Assembly: GCA_964518965.1 (NCBI GenBank)
Contig: CAZFJP010000003.1
Location: 25,508-89,507, forward strand
Length of the DNA: 64,000 bases
Direction: 5' to 3'
Source of the DNA: an uncultured Candidatus Saccharibacteria bacterium
GTDB lineage: Bacteria; Patescibacteriota; SOKK01
Below are positions 8,597 to 62,715 of the stretch, in pieces; position 1 is the first letter of the stretch, and every line of letters starts with the position of its first letter. The position numbers and the translations under genes are program-made. The notes beneath the pieces were generated by a model. That model made no database searches, had not been told where the DNA came from, and saw only the letters and a program-made list of their open reading frames with translations.

Positions 8597-8713
8597 GGGT
8601 TCGTAGCTCAGTTCCCGCCAGAGGCATGCTCCTGAGGCGCATTCGCCCTCTGGTGAAGGTCCGTCTTTGGCGGAGGTTACCTGCCTGCCGGCAGGCAGGG
8701 AGTGCCTCGTTTT
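8597..8713 (+). pseudogene. Duplicated tRNA-Val 5' fragment (nt 1-17) plus a 100 nt structured GC-rich insert, immediately upstream of the intact tRNA-Val(TAC)
   Basis: GGGTTCGTAGCTCAGTT occurs at 8597-8613 and again at 8714-8730. The intervening 100 nt contain two hairpins: CCGCCAGAGG...CTTTGGCGG, and the perfect palindrome CCTGCCTGCCGGCAGGCAGG. Confidence 0.6.
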
Positions 8714-8790
8714 GGGTTCGTAGCTCAGTTGGTTAGAGCGCCTCGTTTACACCGAGGAGGTCAGAGGTTCAACTCCTCTCGAACCCACCA
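8714..8790 (+). tRNA. tRNA-Val(TAC), CCA encoded
   Basis: GGGTTCG pairs with CGAACCC. Anticodon loop TTTACAC. T-arm AGAGGTTCAACTCCTCT. Confidence 0.85.
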
Positions 8791-28444: not shown

Positions 28445-28633
28445 AGGATAAAGGCAAAAATCAAAAATAAAAATACAAAATTGAATTAAAAAGATAAAAA
28501 TTCAAGCGTCTGTGTTTTACTTTTTCTAACTAAATAATATCTTATTTTACCTTTTACATTTAATTTTGCTTTTTGCCTTTTGCATTTTGAATTTCTGCCA
28601 AAGGCAGATTCATTATAGCTTCTTTTGAAGTAA

Positions 28634-48232: not shown

Positions 48233-48260
48233 GCTGAGGTAGCTTAGCCTGCCATGTAGT
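48233..48260 (+). pseudogene. tRNA-like 5' fragment (GCTGAGGTAGCTTAG) followed by CCTGCC...
   Basis: Acceptor plus D-stem-like 15-mer. The same junction motif is seen at other fragments. Confidence 0.3.
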
Positions 48261-48327
48261 GGGACTTCACAGAAGTTTTAAAGATTATTTTAATGTCTTA
48301 TCTCATTGTAAATTCAAATTTTCGTGT

Positions 48328-48370
48328 GCCGACGTAGCTCAGCCCGCCTATGTCCAAAAGGCTTCGGCGG
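48328..48370 (+). pseudogene. tRNA-Thr 5' fragment (nt 1-15) plus a CCGCC...GGCGG hairpin module
   Basis: GCCGACGTAGCTCAG is identical to the 5' end of tRNA-Thr at 48437. CCCGCCtatgtccaaaaggcttcGGCGG follows. Confidence 0.55.
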
Positions 48371-48436
48371 ACTGGTAGCAAATCCTGATAATTTATTTAT
48401 TTTTAATTTTTAAGTTTTAATTTCTAACTTTCGCCC

Positions 48437-48512
48437 GCCGACGTAGCTCAGTTGGTAGAGCAGCGGTTTCGTAAATCGCGGGTCAGCGGTTCGAATCCGC
48501 TCGTCGGCTCCA
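48437..48512 (+). tRNA. tRNA-Thr(CGT), CCA encoded
   Basis: GCCGACG pairs with CGTCGGC. Anticodon loop TTCGTAA. T-arm AGCGGTTCGAATCCGCT. Confidence 0.8.
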
Positions 48513-56499: not shown

Positions 56500-56626
56500 C
56501 TCTGAAGTTAGTTAATATAGATTATACCAAAAAATAGAAGTCCTAAAATTAAGCGGCTCCTTTTGGATTTTGCATTTTTCGTTTTGAATTTATTTTGTCC
56601 ATCTAATCTGTAAGCCGAGTTCTGTT

Positions 56627-56732
56627 CCCCGCCTAAGTTTCATCGTTGAACTAAATCAAGACTCACTAGAATTGTCAGAACTACTGAACTGATAATGTCT
56701 TGATGGATGTCAATGATGAAATTTAGGCGGGG
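56627..56732. repeat. Palindrome of the 'TTTCATCATTGA...AATCAAGAC' family (copy C), immediately 3' of the RNase P RNA
   Basis: ccccgcctaagtttcatcgttgaactaaatcaagac ... gtcttgatggatgtcaatgatgaaatttaggcgggg. Confidence 0.6.
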
Positions 56733-57092
56733 CGATAATCATCTCTCTAGTCCCCGACTCGCATCGGGGATCAGGCGACCAACCCGTCCCATCCGCTTCT
56801 GGCGGAGAGGCCTACTTGGTCTTACACCAGGCAGGGTTTGGCTCTTCTAAGTATCACTGCTTAGAACTGGGAGCTTTTACCTCACTCTTTTCACCCTTAC
56901 CTTAATACCGGAATGGTATAAGGCGGTTTAAGTTTCTGTGCCACTTTCCCTTGTCGTTTTCTTTTATCTAGAAGGCAAAGAAAACAACCGGTTTGGATTA
57001 CAAACTGCCTTTTTCCCAATAATGAGGGGATATGGTGCTCGGACTTTCCTCCCTGTGCCATAGGACGCAGGGCGATTATCCGATTAGATGGA
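56733..57092 (-). ncRNA. rnpB: RNase P RNA (bacterial type A-like)
   Basis: Minus strand carries the P3 hairpin CCCTGCGTCCTATGGCACAGGG, then GAGGAAAGTCCGAGCACC (P4 5' strand), then ...GGTAAGGGTGAAAAGAGTGAGGTAAAAGCTC (P10.1-P12 consensus-like). GATAATC pairs with GATTATC as a P2 candidate. An upstream promoter is TTGACA-17 nt-TAAAAT (57100-57128 rc). Both ends are approximate. Confidence 0.7.
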
Positions 57093-57443
57093 CATTCTGA
57101 TTTTAGCTTAAAATGATGTTATTGTCAAGAAGATACCATATTATTGAAAAAATGTCAATTCTCAAGGCAATTGGGAGGGACTGGAGGTTTTTGCTGTATC
57201 TCTACATTTTAGGGTTTATCTGCTAAAATAAACTTGCAATGACAAGTAGAAGATATGAAGATTGGGAGAAAAAGGTTTTGCTTAGAGTAAGGGCTCGTGA
57301 GAAGAAAAAGCAAATGATGCCTGTTTCTGGCAAGGGAGTTTTTCAGTTACAAAAATTAATTGGGCGATCTAAATTTAAAAAGAATAATTCTAAATAAGGA
57401 TTTTTAGGGTTTTGGGTTTTGCGTTTTGAGTTGAGTTTTGAGA

Positions 57444-57494
57444 CGGGGATTGGCCCAGTTTCCGCCAGGGGCGGATGCGCCTCTGGCGCACACC
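57444..57494 (+). pseudogene. tRNA-Pro 5' fragment (nt 1-17) plus double-hairpin module (copy 1)
   Basis: CGGGGATTGGCCCAGTT, then TCCGCC-agg-GGCGGA, then TGCGCC-tct-GGCGCA. Confidence 0.55.
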
Positions 57495-57530
57495 TTAGTT
57501 TATCTACATAATTTTTAAAGAAGGGACTAA

Positions 57531-57791
57531 ATGTTTTTTGTCTATTTTTTGAGAAGTAGAAAGAATCGGAAGATTTATACTGGAATGACAGCAAAGATAC
57601 CTTGTGAGAGATTAAAGGAACATAATTTAGGATCGAACAAATGGACGAGAAAAAATGGACCATTCAGTTTGCTCTATTATGAGAAATATTTCTGCAAAGC
57701 TGATGCTATGCAAAGAGAAAGATTTTATAAATCGGGGTTTGGTAGAAAAATCAGAGATTCAATTATTGTTGCTTTAACAAGATTTCAATGA
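57531..57791 (+). CDS. Stand-alone GIY-YIG nuclease family protein (UPF0213/YazA-like)
   Basis: FFVYFLRS.KNRKIYTGMT......RLKEHNLG...WTRKNGP..LLYYEKF......A..RE...K motif pattern in an 86 aa protein. Confidence 0.6.
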   Translation: MFFVYFLRSRKNRKIYTGMTAKIPCERLKEHNLGSNKWTRKNGPFSLLYYEKYFCKADAMQRERFYKSGFGRKIRDSIIVALTRFQ

Positions 57792-57876
57792 GAATAGTTA
57801 GTATTTTAGAGAGCAAGCCTGATTTCTCCGCCAGGGGCGGATGCGAAATTTGGTTTTTCTTTTATAAACTATTTTC

Positions 57877-57993
57877 CGGGGATTGGCCCAGTTTCCGCCA
57901 GGGGCGGATGCGCCTCTGGCGCACACCTGGCGTATCTCTGGTGCACAGGATGTGTTTTAAGATTTACTCTTTCTTTTATCAAGTTATTTTTTC
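57877..57993 (+). pseudogene. tRNA-Pro 5' fragment (nt 1-17) plus double-hairpin module (copy 2), immediately upstream of the intact tRNA-Pro(GGG)
   Basis: Identical 47-mer CGGGGATTGGCCCAGTTTCCGCCAGGGGCGGATGCGCCTCTGGCGCACACCT. A third partial copy of hairpin 1 lies at 57827-57845. Confidence 0.55.
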
Positions 57994-58071
57994 CGGGGAT
58001 TGGCCCAGTTGGTCTAAGGCGCACGCATGGGGTGCGTGAGATCGTGAGTTCGAATCTCACATCCCCGACCA
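57994..58071 (+). tRNA. tRNA-Pro(GGG), CCA encoded
   Basis: CGGGGAT pairs with ATCCCCG. Anticodon loop ATGGGGT. T-arm GTGAGTTCGAATCTCAC. The D-stem has one mismatch. Confidence 0.7.
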
Positions 58072-59095: not shown

Positions 59096-59285
59096 CGGGG
59101 ACTGGTCTAATGGCTAAGGCACACGATTCGGTTTGCCTGCCGCCAAATTATTCTCGGGGATTGGCCTAGTGGATTAAGGCGCACGCTTCGGGTGCGTGAG
59201 ATCATCGGTTCGAATCCGATATCCCCGACCATGGCTCTGGTAGGCGGGGTTCGTGAGATTCTGGGTTTGAGTCCCGGGTCCCCGA
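59096..59285 (+). other. Split tRNA-Pro(CGG). The 5' half (positions 1-36, 59096-59131) and the 3' half (positions 37-73, 59249-59285) are separated by a 117 nt insert that itself contains an intact tRNA-Pro(CGG).
   Basis: The halves reconstitute a canonical cloverleaf: acceptor CGGGGAC/GTCCCCG, D-stem GTCT/AGGC, anticodon stem CACGA/TCGTG with loop TTCGG|GT, T-arm CTGGGTTTGAGTCCCGG. No CCA is encoded (CTA follows). Confidence 0.55.
59155..59231 (+). tRNA. tRNA-Pro(CGG), CCA encoded (nested inside the split tRNA-Pro)
   Basis: CGGGGAT pairs with ATCCCCG. D-stem GCCT/AGGC. Anticodon loop TTCGGGT. T-arm ATCGGTTCGAATCCGAT. Confidence 0.8.
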
Positions 59286-59472
59286 CTAAGGACAGTTTTT
59301 CTTTTTGAGAGTGTTTCAGGTTTTTCTTTAATATAGTATGGGTTTTGGAATTAGGGGATTGTTTGAAGTGGTGGTAAGGTAAAAGGTAGACGATATTGCT
59401 GGGTTTTTTAATTGGTATATTCTAGAGTTGGCTATATTTTGGGGCTAATTGACGGCTTATTAATAAAAAGTT

Positions 59473-62400
59473 ATGGCCCAAAAATTTTTACACAATGCAA
59501 ATAACGATTCACTTCCTGAATTAGCTGATAATCTTGTTTCGGAAACAAAGAAAATGCTTCATGAAACCAAAACGGAGGAAGATTTAAGAATTGGTTTTGA
59601 AAAACTTTTGGAACCGATAAGGTCCGAATTAAATCTAAATTCAACCCCAAAATACGAAAAATCTGTTTATAGTGGTCGTTCAGATGCAGTACACGGACAA
59701 GTAATAATTGAATATGAACCGCCAAAATCATTTTCATCAAAAAAGAATATAAATCATGCTTACGAGCAATTGGTAAATTACTTGTCCGATGAAGCAAAAG
59801 AAACAAAATTAACTCAATTAGTGGGAATAGGTTTTGATGGCGAGCAGATTTTCTTTGTCCAATATCAAGACAAAAACAACAAAAAGATAGACAAGGCAAA
59901 ATTTTTTATTCGTGGACCTTACCATTTTACTCCTGAAAGTGCCAGAACTTTTTTAATTCATCTACGTGCTCTGTCTCGGCTTCCGCTTAGCCCTGAAAAT
60001 TTGGCACAAAAGTTTGGTCCCCAAAGCGAACTTGCACAAAAAATGGTTTCCTCTCTTGCCAATGCTTTGGAATATTGGGTGGATCAAACACATATTCGCA
60101 CATTTTTTAATGAGTGGAAAAGATTATTTGGTATTGTTTATGGAGAACAATTTACTAGTGGATATCAAGAAAAAGAGGCAGAAAAGCTTTCAAAACTTTA
60201 CAAAGTAGGGAAAGAAACTGAATTTCAAGAGCTTTTATTTTCCATCCATACTTACTTTGCTTTTTTAATGAAACTTATTGCTGCCGAAATTTTGACTTTA
60301 AGAGAAACATCTTTTAGTTCATCTCTTGCTTCAGAACTAGCTCATATTTCGGAGGATGAACTTAAAAGCAATCTTTCCGATATAGAAAACGGTGGAATTT
60401 ATGCCCAAAAAGGAATTACTAATTTTTTGGAAGGTGATTTTTTCCGCTGGTATCTTGATGCTTTTGAATCACCGGAACTAAAAGACGCGATTAGAGAAAT
60501 TGCCAGATGTCTTTCTGAATTTGAACCGGCAACCAGCACTTTAGATCCGGTTTCAACTCGCGATCTCCTCAAAAAACTTTATCAGTATTTAGTCCCGCAG
60601 GAAGTCCGCCATCGCCTTGGCGAATATTATACACCCGATTGGTTGGCGGAATTACTACTAAATGAAGTTGGCTACGATGGCAACACCCTTAAAAGATTTT
60701 TGGACCCGGCTTGCGGCTCCGGAACATTTTTAGTTTTGGCAATTCAGCGCGCAATAAAACATGGCAGAGAAAAAGAAAAGATCTCTGATCTTGAAATCGC
60801 AAAAAGAATCGTCGCCAATATCTGGGGATTTGATTTAAATCCTTTGGCAGTTATTGCCGCGCGAACCAATTATCTTTTTGCTTTGGGAGATTTGGTAAAT
60901 GAACTGGAACGAGTGGAAATCCCAATTTACCTTTGCGATTCAGTTTTATGGCCAGAACAAATAGGGGGACAATTAATCCTCGGTTTAGAGGGAGATGTCA
61001 GAAAAATTAAAACTTCAGTTAAAGAGTTTTTCGTTCCAAGAATTTGGACCGATGAGTTTAAGTGGCGAATGGGCGAAGCCGCAGAAATTATTGAAAGAGA
61101 TGTTAAACTTCAAGTTGATTCAGAAATAGCATTAAAACATTTTAAAGATGTTGGCTTGGCTTTTCGTGGTTGCGAGAATGAGGTTAAAAATTTTTATAGT
61201 CAAATTTTGGACTTGGAAAAAGAAAGAAAAAACGGTATTTGGGCAAGATTTCTTAAAAATTTCTCTGCGCCGATAGTAGCTGGAAGAGAAAAATATGATT
61301 TTGTCGTTGGCAACCCTCCGTGGATTATGTGGCAATATTTGTCAATAGAATACAGAAAGGCTACACAAAATTTATGGGAGAATTATGGTCTTACAAAGAT
61401 CGGGCAAGTACGAAATGTCCTGATTAGGGGTAGAAGAGATTTTTCAATGCTTTTTGTTTATGCTTCCGCTGACTATTATCTTAAAGATGGAGCAAAATTA
61501 GGATTTTTAATAACCCAAGAGGTTTTTAAATCCAAAGGGGCGGGTGAGGGATTTAGGAGATTTCAGCTTGGCGAGGGTAAATATCTTAAAGTATTAAAAG
61601 CCCACGATTTAGTTTCCATTCAGCCATTTGAGGGCGCAACAAATAAAACAGCGGCAATAATTCTTAAAAAGGGAGAAAAAACAAAGTATCCTGTGCCTTA
61701 TATTGTTTGGTCAAAGAAACAAACCATGGGGAAAATCGCTACAGATAAACTTTTAGAAGAAGTAGTTCCTATGCTTTCTAAAAAACGACTCCTTGCTAGA
61801 CCAATTGGTTCAGAAACAGGAGCCTGGCAAACACAAATACAGGGTATAGTTATTAATATTGAGGGACAAAATTATTATAAAGCACATGCTGGAGCTTATA
61901 TTTCTCCTTATGGGATTTTTTGGCTAAAAGTAAAAAGTATACTATCAGATAATAACTTATTAATTGAAAATTTTACTGAAAAAGTAAAAACAAAAATTCC
62001 AAAAACAGAAGCAGTGATTGAGCAGGATTTAGTTTACCCAGCGATACGTGGCTCAGATATTCAAAAGTGGAAGGTATTACCTCAAATCTATGTCTTAATC
62101 ACTCACCCTGCATCACAGACCCCGTATATAGAAGAAGAGATGAAAAAGCAATGGCCGAGAACTTATAGTTATCTGATTAACTTCAAAAACATTTTATTGC
62201 AAAGAGCACTTTATAAACACTTTCATGAGAAATCAGACAATTCTTTTTATGGACAACGTCTTTTTGGAAATTATACTTTTTCAAAATATAAAGTTGTGTG
62301 GAAGCGAATGGCTGAAGACTTAATTTCCGCAGTTGTTTCTCAACATAAAACTTTATTCGGTTATAAAATAATAATACCTGTTGAAACGGTTACTTTCTTT

Positions 62401-62715
62401 TCAACCGACAACGAATTTGAAGCTCACTATCTCTGTGCTATTATCAATTCAACACCAGTCCGTGATTTTATTAAATCTTTCTCTTCTGCTGGTCGAGGTT
62501 TTGGCACGCCTTCGGTAATGGAGCATGTCAGCATTCCAAAATTTGACCCTAAAAATCCGCTTCACCTGAAACTTGCTGAAATTTCTAAAAAATGCCACCA
62601 ATTCAAAGCCGAAGGCAAAGAAAAAGAGATTGAAAAATTAGAAAAAGAAAACGACGAGTTAGTTAAAGAACTTTTTGCTAAAAAAGCGAAGAAAATTGCC
62701 TTATTCACTCATTAA
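59473..62715 (+). CDS. Large gamma-class N6-adenine DNA methyltransferase protein (Type IIG/IIL- or PglX-like): N-terminal domain with a possible degenerate PD-(D/E)xK, central methyltransferase, C-terminal target-recognition-like region
   Basis: Motif X GEYYTPDWLAELLL. Motif I FLDPACGSGTFLV. Motif IV VVGNPPWIMWQY. N-terminal GRSDAVHGQVIIEYEPPK is D-x9-E-x-E-like. 1080 aa. Confidence 0.65.
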   Translation: MAQKFLHNANNDSLPELADNLVSETKKMLHETKTEEDLRIGFEKLLEPIRSELNLNSTPKYEKSVYSGRSDAVHGQVIIEYEPPKSFSSKKNINHAYEQLVNYLSDEAKETKLTQLVGIGFDGEQIFFVQYQDKNNKKIDKAKFFIRGPYHFTPESARTFLIHLRALSRLPLSPENLAQKFGPQSELAQKMVSSLANALEYWVDQTHIRTFFNEWKRLFGIVYGEQFTSGYQEKEAEKLSKLYKVGKETEFQELLFSIHTYFAFLMKLIAAEILTLRETSFSSSLASELAHISEDELKSNLSDIENGGIYAQKGITNFLEGDFFRWYLDAFESPELKDAIREIARCLSEFEPATSTLDPVSTRDLLKKLYQYLVPQEVRHRLGEYYTPDWLAELLLNEVGYDGNTLKRFLDPACGSGTFLVLAIQRAIKHGREKEKISDLEIAKRIVANIWGFDLNPLAVIAARTNYLFALGDLVNELERVEIPIYLCDSVLWPEQIGGQLILGLEGDVRKIKTSVKEFFVPRIWTDEFKWRMGEAAEIIERDVKLQVDSEIALKHFKDVGLAFRGCENEVKNFYSQILDLEKERKNGIWARFLKNFSAPIVAGREKYDFVVGNPPWIMWQYLSIEYRKATQNLWENYGLTKIGQVRNVLIRGRRDFSMLFVYASADYYLKDGAKLGFLITQEVFKSKGAGEGFRRFQLGEGKYLKVLKAHDLVSIQPFEGATNKTAAIILKKGEKTKYPVPYIVWSKKQTMGKIATDKLLEEVVPMLSKKRLLARPIGSETGAWQTQIQGIVINIEGQNYYKAHAGAYISPYGIFWLKVKSILSDNNLLIENFTEKVKTKIPKTEAVIEQDLVYPAIRGSDIQKWKVLPQIYVLITHPASQTPYIEEEMKKQWPRTYSYLINFKNILLQRALYKHFHEKSDNSFYGQRLFGNYTFSKYKVVWKRMAEDLISAVVSQHKTLFGYKIIIPVETVTFFSTDNEFEAHYLCAIINSTPVRDFIKSFSSAGRGFGTPSVMEHVSIPKFDPKNPLHLKLAEISKKCHQFKAEGKEKEIEKLEKENDELVKELFAKKAKKIALFTH

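Follow-up and report, generated by a model that had tools for sequence, protein, structure and literature searches.

What are the truncated copies of tRNA genes that precede several intact tRNA genes in the genome of an uncultured Candidatus Saccharibacteria bacterium, and why is each of them followed by GC-rich hairpins? The stretch of DNA analysed here, referred to as the window, comprises 64,000 nucleotides (nt) of contig CAZFJP010000003.1 (positions 25,508 to 89,507). Within it, a tRNA-Pro gene is preceded by two such modules and by a small gene for a nuclease of the GIY-YIG family. It is proposed, with a probability of roughly 0.6, that the modules stem from a selfish, tRNA-resident, homing-type GIY-YIG cassette of the Patescibacteria, as its scars and as derivatives without the GIY-YIG gene. 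That they are interrupted tRNA pseudo-copies belonging to a family of GIY-YIG cassettes can be stated with high confidence, and the specific homing mechanism suggested by the comparisons is offered tentatively. The cassette and its module are undescribed in Rfam and in the literature searched, including a phylogenomic study of GIY-YIG proteins (PMC1564403) and a 2026 report on tRNA introns in Patescibacteria (PMC13011429), in agreement with an earlier reading of the window sequence (the original prediction), which did not recognise a described element. A free-standing homing-type nuclease cassette joined with a tRNA-restoring integration logic is apparently undescribed.

Interrupted tRNA copies in the window

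The window holds 13 tRNA genes, together with a tmRNA and an RNase P RNA, as identified with ARAGORN and Rfam. When each tRNA was compared with the window by k-mers, the exact 5' copies that had been predicted were recovered: nt 1-17 of tRNA-Val(UAC) at 8597, nt 1-17 of tRNA-Pro(GGG) at both 57444 and 57877, and nt 1-15 of tRNA-Thr(CGU) at 48328. A 15-mer at 48233, previously described as tRNA-like, is Thr-like but matches nt 1-15 of tRNA-Thr at 12 of 15 positions. Directly 3' of every exact copy are the junction motif YCCGCC and GC-rich hairpins, as had also been reported. The distance from the start of the fragment to the start of the intact tRNA is 117 nt for Val, 109 nt for Thr, and 117 nt for the second Pro fragment.

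These fragments had been thought to break off in the D-loop. In gapped alignments of each upstream region with its own tRNA, however, the tRNA sequence picks up again past the hairpins. In the Val unit, nt 1-17 are followed by a 61-nt nested hairpin (8614-8674), nt 18-22 (8675-8679), a 20-nt perfect palindrome, CCTGCCTGCCGGCAGGCAGG (8680-8699), and nt 23-35 (8700-8712). In the second Pro module, nt 25-37 reappear at 57918-57930. The fragments are interrupted, truncated pseudo-copies of the adjoining tRNA rather than stubs of 15-17 nt. In the Thr unit, which precedes the intact tRNA-Thr at 48437, the sequence CTGGTAGCA is a probable D-loop remnant.

At the Pro locus the exact repeat is 52 nt long (57444-57495 and 57877-57928), not 47 nt as first reported. 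The region is identical in three independent Joint Genome Institute (JGI) assemblies, so the arrangement is not an assembly artefact. Two modules do lie around the GIY-YIG gene, as the original prediction held, but a third copy of the hairpin junction (57827-57845), past the stop codon of that gene, had been missed. Just 5' of this copy, GCCTGATT is a possible degenerate D-arm remnant. The second hairpin of the downstream module forms by pairing of nine added bases with nt 25-30 of the tRNA itself, which serve as its 3' arm. The upstream fragment is probably the native 5' end of the tRNA-Pro gene, pushed upstream. The sole promoter-like site on the plus strand of the locus (57201-57229) is 5' of a 52-aa open reading frame (ORF) that precedes this fragment. 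The product of this ORF (57239-57397) is basic and belongs to no Pfam family, and its position and sequence are kept in a related locus, L087 (425-583).

Four tRNA loci had been listed as affected, and a fifth was overlooked. The anticodon loop of an older tRNA-Pro encloses a tRNA-Pro(CGG) at 59155; the 5' half of the older gene is at 59096-59131 and its 3' half at approximately 59244-59286. The insert between them consists of GCCTGCC/GGTAGGC hairpin arms, a short leader, and the intact tRNA-Pro(CGG) at 59155-59231. When joined, the outer halves fold as a valid tRNA-Pro, with 5 differences from the inner tRNA-Pro(CGG) over 29 aligned positions of the 5' half.

The breakpoint had further been taken to be fixed at tRNA position +1. 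Similarity between copies does start exactly there for the Val fragment and the first Pro fragment, but not for the others: the leader of the second Pro fragment is identical to that of the intact gene at 25 of 34 positions, and the Thr leaders at 15 of 25. Position +1 is not a mechanistic breakpoint, and similarity runs further upstream in two of the four window cases.

Association of the nuclease gene with tRNA genes

A profile of GIY-YIG proteins of the window type was scanned against one genome per GTDB species. This returned 80 loci, nearly all from metagenome-assembled genomes (MAGs) of Patescibacteria type in many classes; with the loci fetched earlier there are 79 distinct loci. The nuclease gene is no more than about 200 nt, and mostly less than 100 nt, from a tRNA gene on the same strand in approximately 74 of the 79. 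The neighbouring tRNAs include Pro, Val, Ala, Asp, Asn, Ile, Lys, His, Gly, and others, making at least 10 identities, and nearly all of the tRNA-linked loci have a second, partial, collinear copy of the same tRNA across the ORF. The GIY-YIG gene, which the original prediction treated as a bystander, is part of an autonomous cassette.

Two mirror configurations are found. In the majority, configuration A, nt 1-17 of the tRNA precede a 30-nt insert; nt 18 to roughly 28 come next, then approximately 10 nt, and after these the ORF and the intact tRNA. In configuration B, the intact tRNA is followed by 1-80 nt, the ORF, nt 8-17, the 30-nt insert, and nt 18-77. Here nt 8-17 encode the end of the ORF, which reads on through the ten codons of the insert as far as the TAG in the D-loop; the C-terminal ...SAKGGPASGGG tails of several database proteins are due to this translation of the insert. 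The junction between ORF and tRNA is fixed in configuration B, with a conserved motif 33 nt 5' of the first hairpin, and variable in configuration A (30-60 nt, in all three frames). Interrupted copies are always without one acceptor strand, having either nt 1-28 only or no nt 1-7, and always keep the D arm around the insert. Tandem arrays of units are seen in L001, L009, L033, L092, and the window, and many contigs end at the cassette.

The location of the insert in loops (D, anticodon, and T), where archaeal non-canonical tRNA introns also occur, and the folding of the joined outer halves at 59096-59286 as a tRNA, might suggest split, permuted, or intron-containing tRNAs whose halves are joined at the RNA level. 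This reading, one of those put forward in the original prediction, has next to no probability. It is contradicted by the contiguous tRNA, scoring 50-77 bits, that is present at each locus and makes the fragments redundant, and by the truncation of the interrupted copies. In addition, Rfam gave no match to an intron ribozyme core at the hairpin insert in the window region or in representative loci, and two 6-bp triloop hairpins do not have bulge-helix-bulge geometry.

The flanks of the two copies indicate which of them marks the native gene. In configuration-A loci, -10-like boxes, often of the TGGTATAAT type, are found just 5' of the interrupted copy in 19 of 33 cases, compared with 4 of 33 controls. 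In the configuration-B loci L003 and L029, a terminator-like hairpin is present 3' of the interrupted copy. On the basis of these signals the interrupted piece is the native end of the gene, and the ORF and the functional tRNA are apparently read from the native promoter.

An alternative is that the module is an RNA-level cis element of a tRNA-GIY-YIG operon, in which the D-stem and hairpins stabilise or regulate the nuclease mRNA, or block the processing or misfolding of a redundant piece of tRNA; the RNase P decoy or leader of the original prediction belongs here. The ORF and the tRNA are always on the same strand with an apparently common tRNA promoter, the hairpins of the Pro and Val modules are stable, and the D arm is always kept. 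Even so, this is improbable. Whereas the module precedes the ORF in configuration A, it follows the ORF in configuration B and is there even translated, as the tail of the protein, and solo modules such as those at Val and Thr in the window have no ORF to regulate. Copies without an acceptor strand are not tRNA-type substrates of RNase P, and a contiguous, high-scoring tRNA is found at every locus. Empty sites, arrays, and foreign tRNA alleles would be left unexplained, and the module has no Rfam match. A type III toxin-antitoxin system, with the pseudo-tRNA as RNA antitoxin or decoy of a tRNA-cleaving nuclease, was also considered and rejected: the pseudo-copy duplicates the neighbouring gene at the DNA level, can be 5' or 3' of the ORF, and remains where the ORF is absent.

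Two individual loci have further peculiarities. In the tRNA next to the cassette of L015 (approximately 2414-2499), an 11-nt sequence of the D arm, GGCTAGAGCAT, is tandemly duplicated, and this tRNA is wrongly called as a tRNA-Cys of 86 nt. A normal tRNA-Pro(UGG) is present in the sister loci L016 and L029. In L023 (2856-3137) a group I intron (66.6 bits) directly follows the tRNA-Val that accompanies the cassette; it presumably resides in the tRNA gene that comes next in the cluster.

The 30-nt double-hairpin insert

The insert is made of two adjacent 15-nt hairpins, the first TCNNCC-ARA-GGNNGA and the second the reverse-complement form with a TYT loop; the 30-mer is a quasi-palindrome made of two palindromes. 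A search of related genomes for junctions between tRNA sequence and hairpins, as had been suggested, found them in 85 places in approximately 70 genomes. The 85 insertions are precise, with no bases lost and none duplicated, and lie 3' of YARYT, most commonly between CAGTT and GG (nt 17/18). Other sites are nt 12/13 (between TAGYT and CA), nt 8/9, 52/53 and 56/57 in the T arm, and the CAGTT in the anticodon stem of tRNA-Asn. The earlier suggestion of an insertion element of the D-loop is supported by the preference for nt 17/18, by its occurrence in many genomes and tRNA types, and by an empty site in a relative. Its description as a miniature element with long target-site duplications does not hold, since the autonomous form carries the GIY-YIG gene and there are no duplications of fixed length. 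What appeared to be duplications are tRNA segments that differ in extent (nt 1-28, or nt 8-77 with spacer) and are partly imported with the cassette.

Stem positions 3 and 4 vary together with their partners (CG, AG, GG, GT, and others), although the statistics of this covariation are partly circular, the sequences having been picked for being palindromic. Three observations are independent of that selection. In an unselected display of all upstream regions, two hairpins are seen in most configuration-A loci. Of 210 hairpins, 172 (82%) are beside the ORF, where they are about 60-fold denser than in the rest of the loci. The third is the excess of hairpins over chance in the window. The complementary variation would indicate folding in single-stranded DNA or RNA, not a duplex site read by a dimer. 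Between the sister cassettes L067 (Ala) and L068 (Asp), the hairpin pair is shared at 29 of 30 positions, compared with a mean identity of 78% over the 528 alignment columns and a visibly less conserved ORF interior. The hairpins thus move together with the ORF and are under tighter constraint than the ORF itself.

In the window and five related loci, no Rfam family corresponds to the module at either the gathering threshold or a permissive E-value. Apart from a single group I intron elsewhere, all matches were to tRNA, tmRNA, and RNase P. An origin of the hairpins by palindromic fill-in of breaks capped by hairpins was rejected, as their arms are not complementary to the flanks and have the conserved form TCNNCC...GGNNGA.

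It might be argued that all of this is the plain decay of local tandem tRNA duplications, with the hairpins being chance palindromes or terminators and the GIY-YIG gene unrelated. Tandem arrays and unequal exchange clearly occur, and for the Thr module folding is no stronger than in shuffled controls (z -0.24). Yet the same CAGTT-hairpin junction is repeated in the 85 places mentioned, in at least 10 tRNA types, by homologous nucleases, which contradicts decay and makes it highly improbable. Within the window, the 18-mer CCGCCAGGGGCGGATGCG occurs 3 times with 0 expected, and perfect hairpins of 6 bp with a 3-nt loop and a CC...GG centre occur 7 times with approximately 1.2 expected. The Pro and Val modules have folding z scores of -2.5 to -3.9, and the window hairpins have no T-run and gave no terminators.

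A different reading of the insert is that the hairpin doublet itself is mobile, as a 30-nt REPIN-like unit, with the minimal GIY-YIG protein as its nuclease or transposase, specific for single strands or for structure. Its action on hairpins would resemble that of the TnpA of IS200/IS605 or of RAYT, with a different enzyme fold. The doublet would insert 3' of YARYT, typically CAGTT, D-arms would be targeted for carrying this sequence, and only insertions in redundant pseudo-copies would survive. This would account for the precision of insertion, with no duplication or loss of target, always after ...AG(T/C)T and including the CAGTT of the tRNA-Asn anticodon stem. It would also account for the two variable stem positions, which stay complementary over many stem types as expected of single-stranded folding, for the several independent pairs per pseudo-copy in L003, L012, L013, L026, L035, and L082, and for the solo or paired hairpins at non-tRNA sites. 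The second hairpin is the reverse-complement type of the first, as in REP doublets (PMC3116915, PMC3337134), and Slx1, a structure-specific nuclease, is among the protein's nearest solved relatives. Nevertheless, the pattern of many dispersed copies is not seen in the fetched loci and the window, given the 82% of hairpins beside the nuclease gene and the 7 in the whole 64-kb window. The tRNA duplications and imported tRNA alleles are left unexplained, and the covariation statistics are partly circular here too. We know of no GIY-YIG enzyme that acts as a transposase of this kind, which also counts against the idea, and on balance it is considered unlikely.

The GIY-YIG protein

The 86-aa ORF of the window matches Pfam PF01541 at 55.2 bits (cut-off 22.6, E 8.6e-15). 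Its nearest solved relatives are two UPF0213 proteins (1ywl and 1zg2); SLX1 and I-TevI come next. Among 21 homologues, Y5, G18, R27, H31, and E63 are invariant and Y16 is nearly so; by analogy with I-TevI, we take the conserved Tyr, Arg, His, and Glu positions to be catalytic. Close homologues are annotated from Patescibacteria, and the ORF is intact in almost all of the related loci. It is the only ORF of the 0.3-0.4-kb unit, which has no integrase gene, no tyrosine or serine recombinase gene, and no associated HUH/Y1 transposase. A phage origin was rejected, because both the junction pattern and the protein family are absent from the viral contigs of IMG/VR.

Prokaryotic Slx1-like proteins are minimal stand-alone domains, and one of them is fused to a TrmH-type methyltransferase, a modifier of tRNA position 18 (PMC1564403). 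That this position is the insertion point here is an intriguing coincidence.

In L079 (2486-2740), which is at a tRNA-Asp, the GIY-YIG ORF has a stop codon or frameshift. L079 and L080, the latter at a tRNA-Asn, are in the same MAG, and that genome therefore has two cassettes at different tRNA types.

Evidence for mobility

An empty site, which the original prediction proposed to look for in relatives, is present in L087. This locus has the RNase P RNA, the 52-aa ORF, a tRNA-Pro, and a 327-aa ORF (a 330-aa ORF in the window) in the same order as the window. Only 5 nt separate the 52-aa ORF from a plain tRNA-Pro, and the nuclease gene, the fragments, and the hairpins are all absent. The Pro anticodons at the two syntenic positions are swapped in L087 relative to the window, with CGG first and GGG second.

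The tRNA sequences themselves indicate import. In L090, L092, and L095, the intact tRNA-Val has the acceptor stem GGATCTG/CAGATCC and the T stem CTGCA/TGCAG. The interrupted copy has nt 10-48 in common with it, but a T stem of TCTGG/CCAGA and the acceptor strand TATACCC, which joins the downstream gene. The two copies in L018 differ by compensatory changes in the T stem (GTGGG/CCCAC and GCCGG/CCGGC). Since the intact tRNA and the displaced remnant are different alleles, the cassette imports tRNA sequence. The mark of co-conversion, intact and displaced tRNA copies that are different functional alleles, is present in L090/L095, in L018, and in the window at 59096-59286, where the nesting of tRNA-Pro(CGG) in an older tRNA-Pro is an event of the same kind.

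In a neighbour-joining tree of the approximately 80-aa protein, which has low resolution and no support values, some clades have a single tRNA type, yet types and configurations are intermixed. This mixing, like the sister cassettes at Ala and Asp, speaks for movement of the cassette from one tRNA type to another. The nearest relative of the window protein in this tree is at a tRNA-Val(GAC).

The tRNA-Val of L094 (318-392) is composed of cassette nt 1-48 and a native T arm and acceptor strand, with two acceptor mismatches and no hairpins, and the locus carries a nuclease gene identical to that of L095. This is either a true deletion or recombination product or an assembly collapse over the repeat, and it has not been used as evidence.

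A model for the cassette

From these observations a model can be put together in which cleavage, its site, a role of the hairpins in immunity, and the route to a new tRNA type are the parts that we infer. The autonomous cassette would consist of an 80-90-aa ORF for a GIY-YIG protein of Slx1/UPF0213 type, a tRNA-restoring piece, and the 30-nt double hairpin. In configuration A the restoring piece would be the leader and nt 1-17; in configuration B it would be an entire tRNA or its nt 18-77. Insertion would take place at position 17/18 of the D-loop and displace part of the native gene, namely the 5' part on the native promoter in configuration A and the 3' part on the native terminator in configuration B. 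The displaced part would persist as a truncated pseudo-copy with its D arm kept and split at 17/18 by the hairpins, and the nuclease gene would be co-transcribed with the tRNA. The +1 boundary would simply be where the native flank ends and the conserved tRNA sequence starts.

Circular permutation of a single unit (hairpins, nt 18-x, ORF, nt y-17) yields both configurations. They correspond to the outcomes predicted if this unit, or an occupied allele serving as template for repair, recombined with a tRNA gene that is uninterrupted. Crossover or gap repair to the left of the hairpins, with a long left arm (leader and nt 1-17), would give configuration A, and crossover to their right, with a long right arm (nt 18-77), would give configuration B. 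The long arm observed in each configuration is the one predicted, and the short arm is the other half of the D arm. In cassette-free alleles the nuclease would break the uninterrupted D-arm DNA, and the break would be repaired from the occupied allele, resulting in homing with co-conversion of the tRNA. The hairpin insert would shield the retained homology arm from cleavage. Repeated break-repair or unequal exchange would stack units, and loss of the ORF would leave solo units such as those at Val, at Thr, and in the second Pro module.

Several points weigh against this account. The sole empty site, in L087, belongs to a distant relative, whose neighbouring gene shows 65% amino-acid identity. 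A search of metagenomes gave no empty Pro allele from the window's own population: the predicted empty-site sequence had 0 matches, and a pattern from the 3' flank matched the same population only, with the region identical. Hairpin pairs are found in pseudo-copies at nt 8/9, 12/13, 52/53, and 56/57 and in the Asn anticodon stem as well, and occasional hairpins lie away from tRNAs (28594 in the window, L014:1509, L067:1768); such scattered positions fit an independently mobile hairpin better. The D-loop of the pseudo-copy is split by hairpins, but the intact tRNA adjoining the nuclease gene retains the putative target, CAGTT joined to GG, and for this reason classical homing immunity would not be achieved. 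Homologous exchange alone cannot move the cassette between tRNA types, because it predicts chimeric, dead tRNAs, and the capture of a new tRNA segment must be assumed. The 86-aa protein is a bare catalytic domain with no evident DNA-binding domain for site specificity. The homing account also draws on sequence comparison throughout, for the nuclease activity, the cleavage site, and the transfer.

A broader proposal, regarded as doubtful, is that the UPF0213/Slx1-like GIY-YIG protein and the 30-nt double hairpin make up a new class of prokaryotic mobile element. Here a structure-specific nuclease would recognise folded single-stranded hairpins or the cloverleaf-like DNA of tRNA genes. It would drive both the insertion of the doublet at the YARYT of the D-arm and the replacement of resident tRNAs by those carried on the cassette.

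Comparison with known systems

The homing-type cassette resembles several known systems in part. SegB of phage T4, a free-standing GIY-YIG enzyme of the tRNA region (PMC2330249), is likewise a small nuclease gene beside a conserved RNA gene. In collaborative homing, as described for F-CphI and the psbA intron and for mobE and I-TevIII (PMC2790892, PMC6083498), a neighbouring insert splits a conserved target, as it does here. Free-standing homing systems also share the co-transfer of flanking gene sequence, seen here as mosaic tRNA alleles, and the existence of empty and occupied sites, although presence and absence at a homologous site is represented here by the distant relative L087 only. The differences are also clear. 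The protein is a bare 86-aa domain of Slx1/UPF0213 type, and the hosts are cellular Patescibacteria rather than phages, none having been found in IMG/VR. The 30-nt double hairpin cannot splice, and because of this the interrupted copy is dead and a second, intact tRNA is always regenerated. This tRNA keeps the presumed target in the same chromosome.

In islands and prophages that integrate into tRNA genes, with a tRNA segment in attP, the element also supplies the tRNA segment that restores the gene, and the displaced native segment stays as a direct repeat. Configuration B is formally identical to this arrangement. However, the cassette lacks a gene for an integrase or recombinase and measures no more than about 0.3-0.4 kb. 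It has its crossover in the D-arm and a hairpin doublet at the junction, and the part of the gene restored in configuration A is the 5' part, not the 3' part.

REPIN-RAYT and IS200/IS605 systems (PMC3116915, PMC3337134) share with the cassette their short palindromes in inverted doublets, precise insertion 3' of a short target with no target duplication, and a single small nuclease gene with non-autonomous derivatives. They differ from it in enzyme, which is HUH/Y1 rather than GIY-YIG, and the units here are smaller (15 nt). The units are also clustered at tRNA pseudo-copies beside the nuclease gene and not dispersed in hundreds.

Mobile GC-rich hairpins that insert in AT-rich genomes, in or beside RNA genes and sometimes in double forms, are also known as the GC clusters of yeast and the double-hairpin elements of Allomyces. 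The palindromes of Volvox (PMC2670323) are GC-rich palindromic repeats of an organelle genome and are comparable to the hairpins here. These organelle repeats are longer and more variable, and have neither a dedicated adjoining nuclease gene nor D-loop specificity.

Features of the window

The features of the cassette and its derivatives in the window are given in Table 1.

Table 1. Positions of cassette-related features in the 64-kb window (HP1 and HP2, first and second hairpin; U1 and U2, upstream and downstream Pro units).
Feature	Position	Strand	Evidence or remarks
52-aa ORF, marker of the native upstream flank	57239..57397	+	Homologue in L087, followed by tRNA-Pro 5 nt on
U1, copy of tRNA-Pro(GGG) nt 1-17	57444..57460	+	k-mer search, alignment
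Double hairpin after CAGTT: HP1 TCCGCCAGGGGCGGA and HP2 TGCGCCTCTGGCGCA	57461..57490	+	
Gene for minimal 86-aa GIY-YIG nuclease, UPF0213/Slx1-like	57531..57791	+	Pfam PF01541
Third HP1 copy and TGCG, 36 nt past the GIY-YIG stop	57827..57845	+	
Leader copy 1	57846..57876	+	25/34 identical to intact tRNA leader 57960-57993
U2, GIY-less unit: nt 1-17, HP1, HP2, nt 25-37-like, 9-nt insert, nt 38-42-like	57877..57959	+	
Intact tRNA-Pro(GGG)	57994..58071	+	ARAGORN, Rfam
GIY-less unit at tRNA-Val(UAC)	8597..8713	+	Intact tRNA begins at 8714
Decaying GIY-less unit at tRNA-Thr(CGU): nt 1-15 and CCCGCC...GGCGGA hairpin (29 nt)	48328..48385	+	
Older, more decayed Thr-like 5' copy (12/15), then CCTGCC	48233..48261	+	
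tRNA-in-tRNA, older tRNA-Pro around tRNA-Pro(CGG)	59096..59286	+	
Solo canonical hairpin TCTGCCAAAGGCAGA, AT-rich intergenic, between two minus-strand ORFs, no tRNA near	28594..28608	+	

Other features of the window are separate from the cassette. The RNase P RNA (class A, 56595-57091, minus strand) is 497 nt long, compared with the 367 positions of its model, with an insertion of approximately 92 nt near the 3' end (model 335/336) and an earlier insertion of 28 nt. An 18-mer resembling the hairpins, UCCGCCAGAAGCGGA (56788-56805), was rejected as an insertion, as it aligns to the family model as the RNA's own helix. Directly after the tRNA-Pro cluster, an ORF of 1080 aa (59473-62715) has N6-methylase, Eco57I, MmeI-type methyltransferase, and TaqI-like specificity domains, and is predicted to encode a fused type II restriction-modification-like enzyme. 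Between 36001 and 42000 the G+C content is 0.46-0.51, compared with about 0.38 elsewhere, and the GC skew is lower. Rfam gave no rRNA there, and the region may be foreign DNA or a block of highly expressed genes.

Implications

The genomes of Patescibacteria are tiny and usually have a single copy of each tRNA gene. If the homing-type cassette behaves as proposed, the repeated breakage and replacement of tRNA genes would shape tRNA alleles in these bacteria, including mosaics of anticodons and arms. The cassette would also confound tRNA annotation and break assemblies. For the protein family, a concrete role would be given to the bare GIY-YIG domain of the UPF0213/YhbQ type. The system is a very small one of nuclease and DNA structure, with a defined, conserved target in the tRNA D arm, and the conservation of the hairpin doublet within cassette lineages, with complementary variation between them, makes it a clean test case for the recognition of folded DNA or RNA by a protein. 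Should the doublet and its nuclease represent a new class of element, they would be a GIY-YIG counterpart of RAYT/REPIN or IS200/IS605 and would provide a first function for the widespread UPF0213 family.

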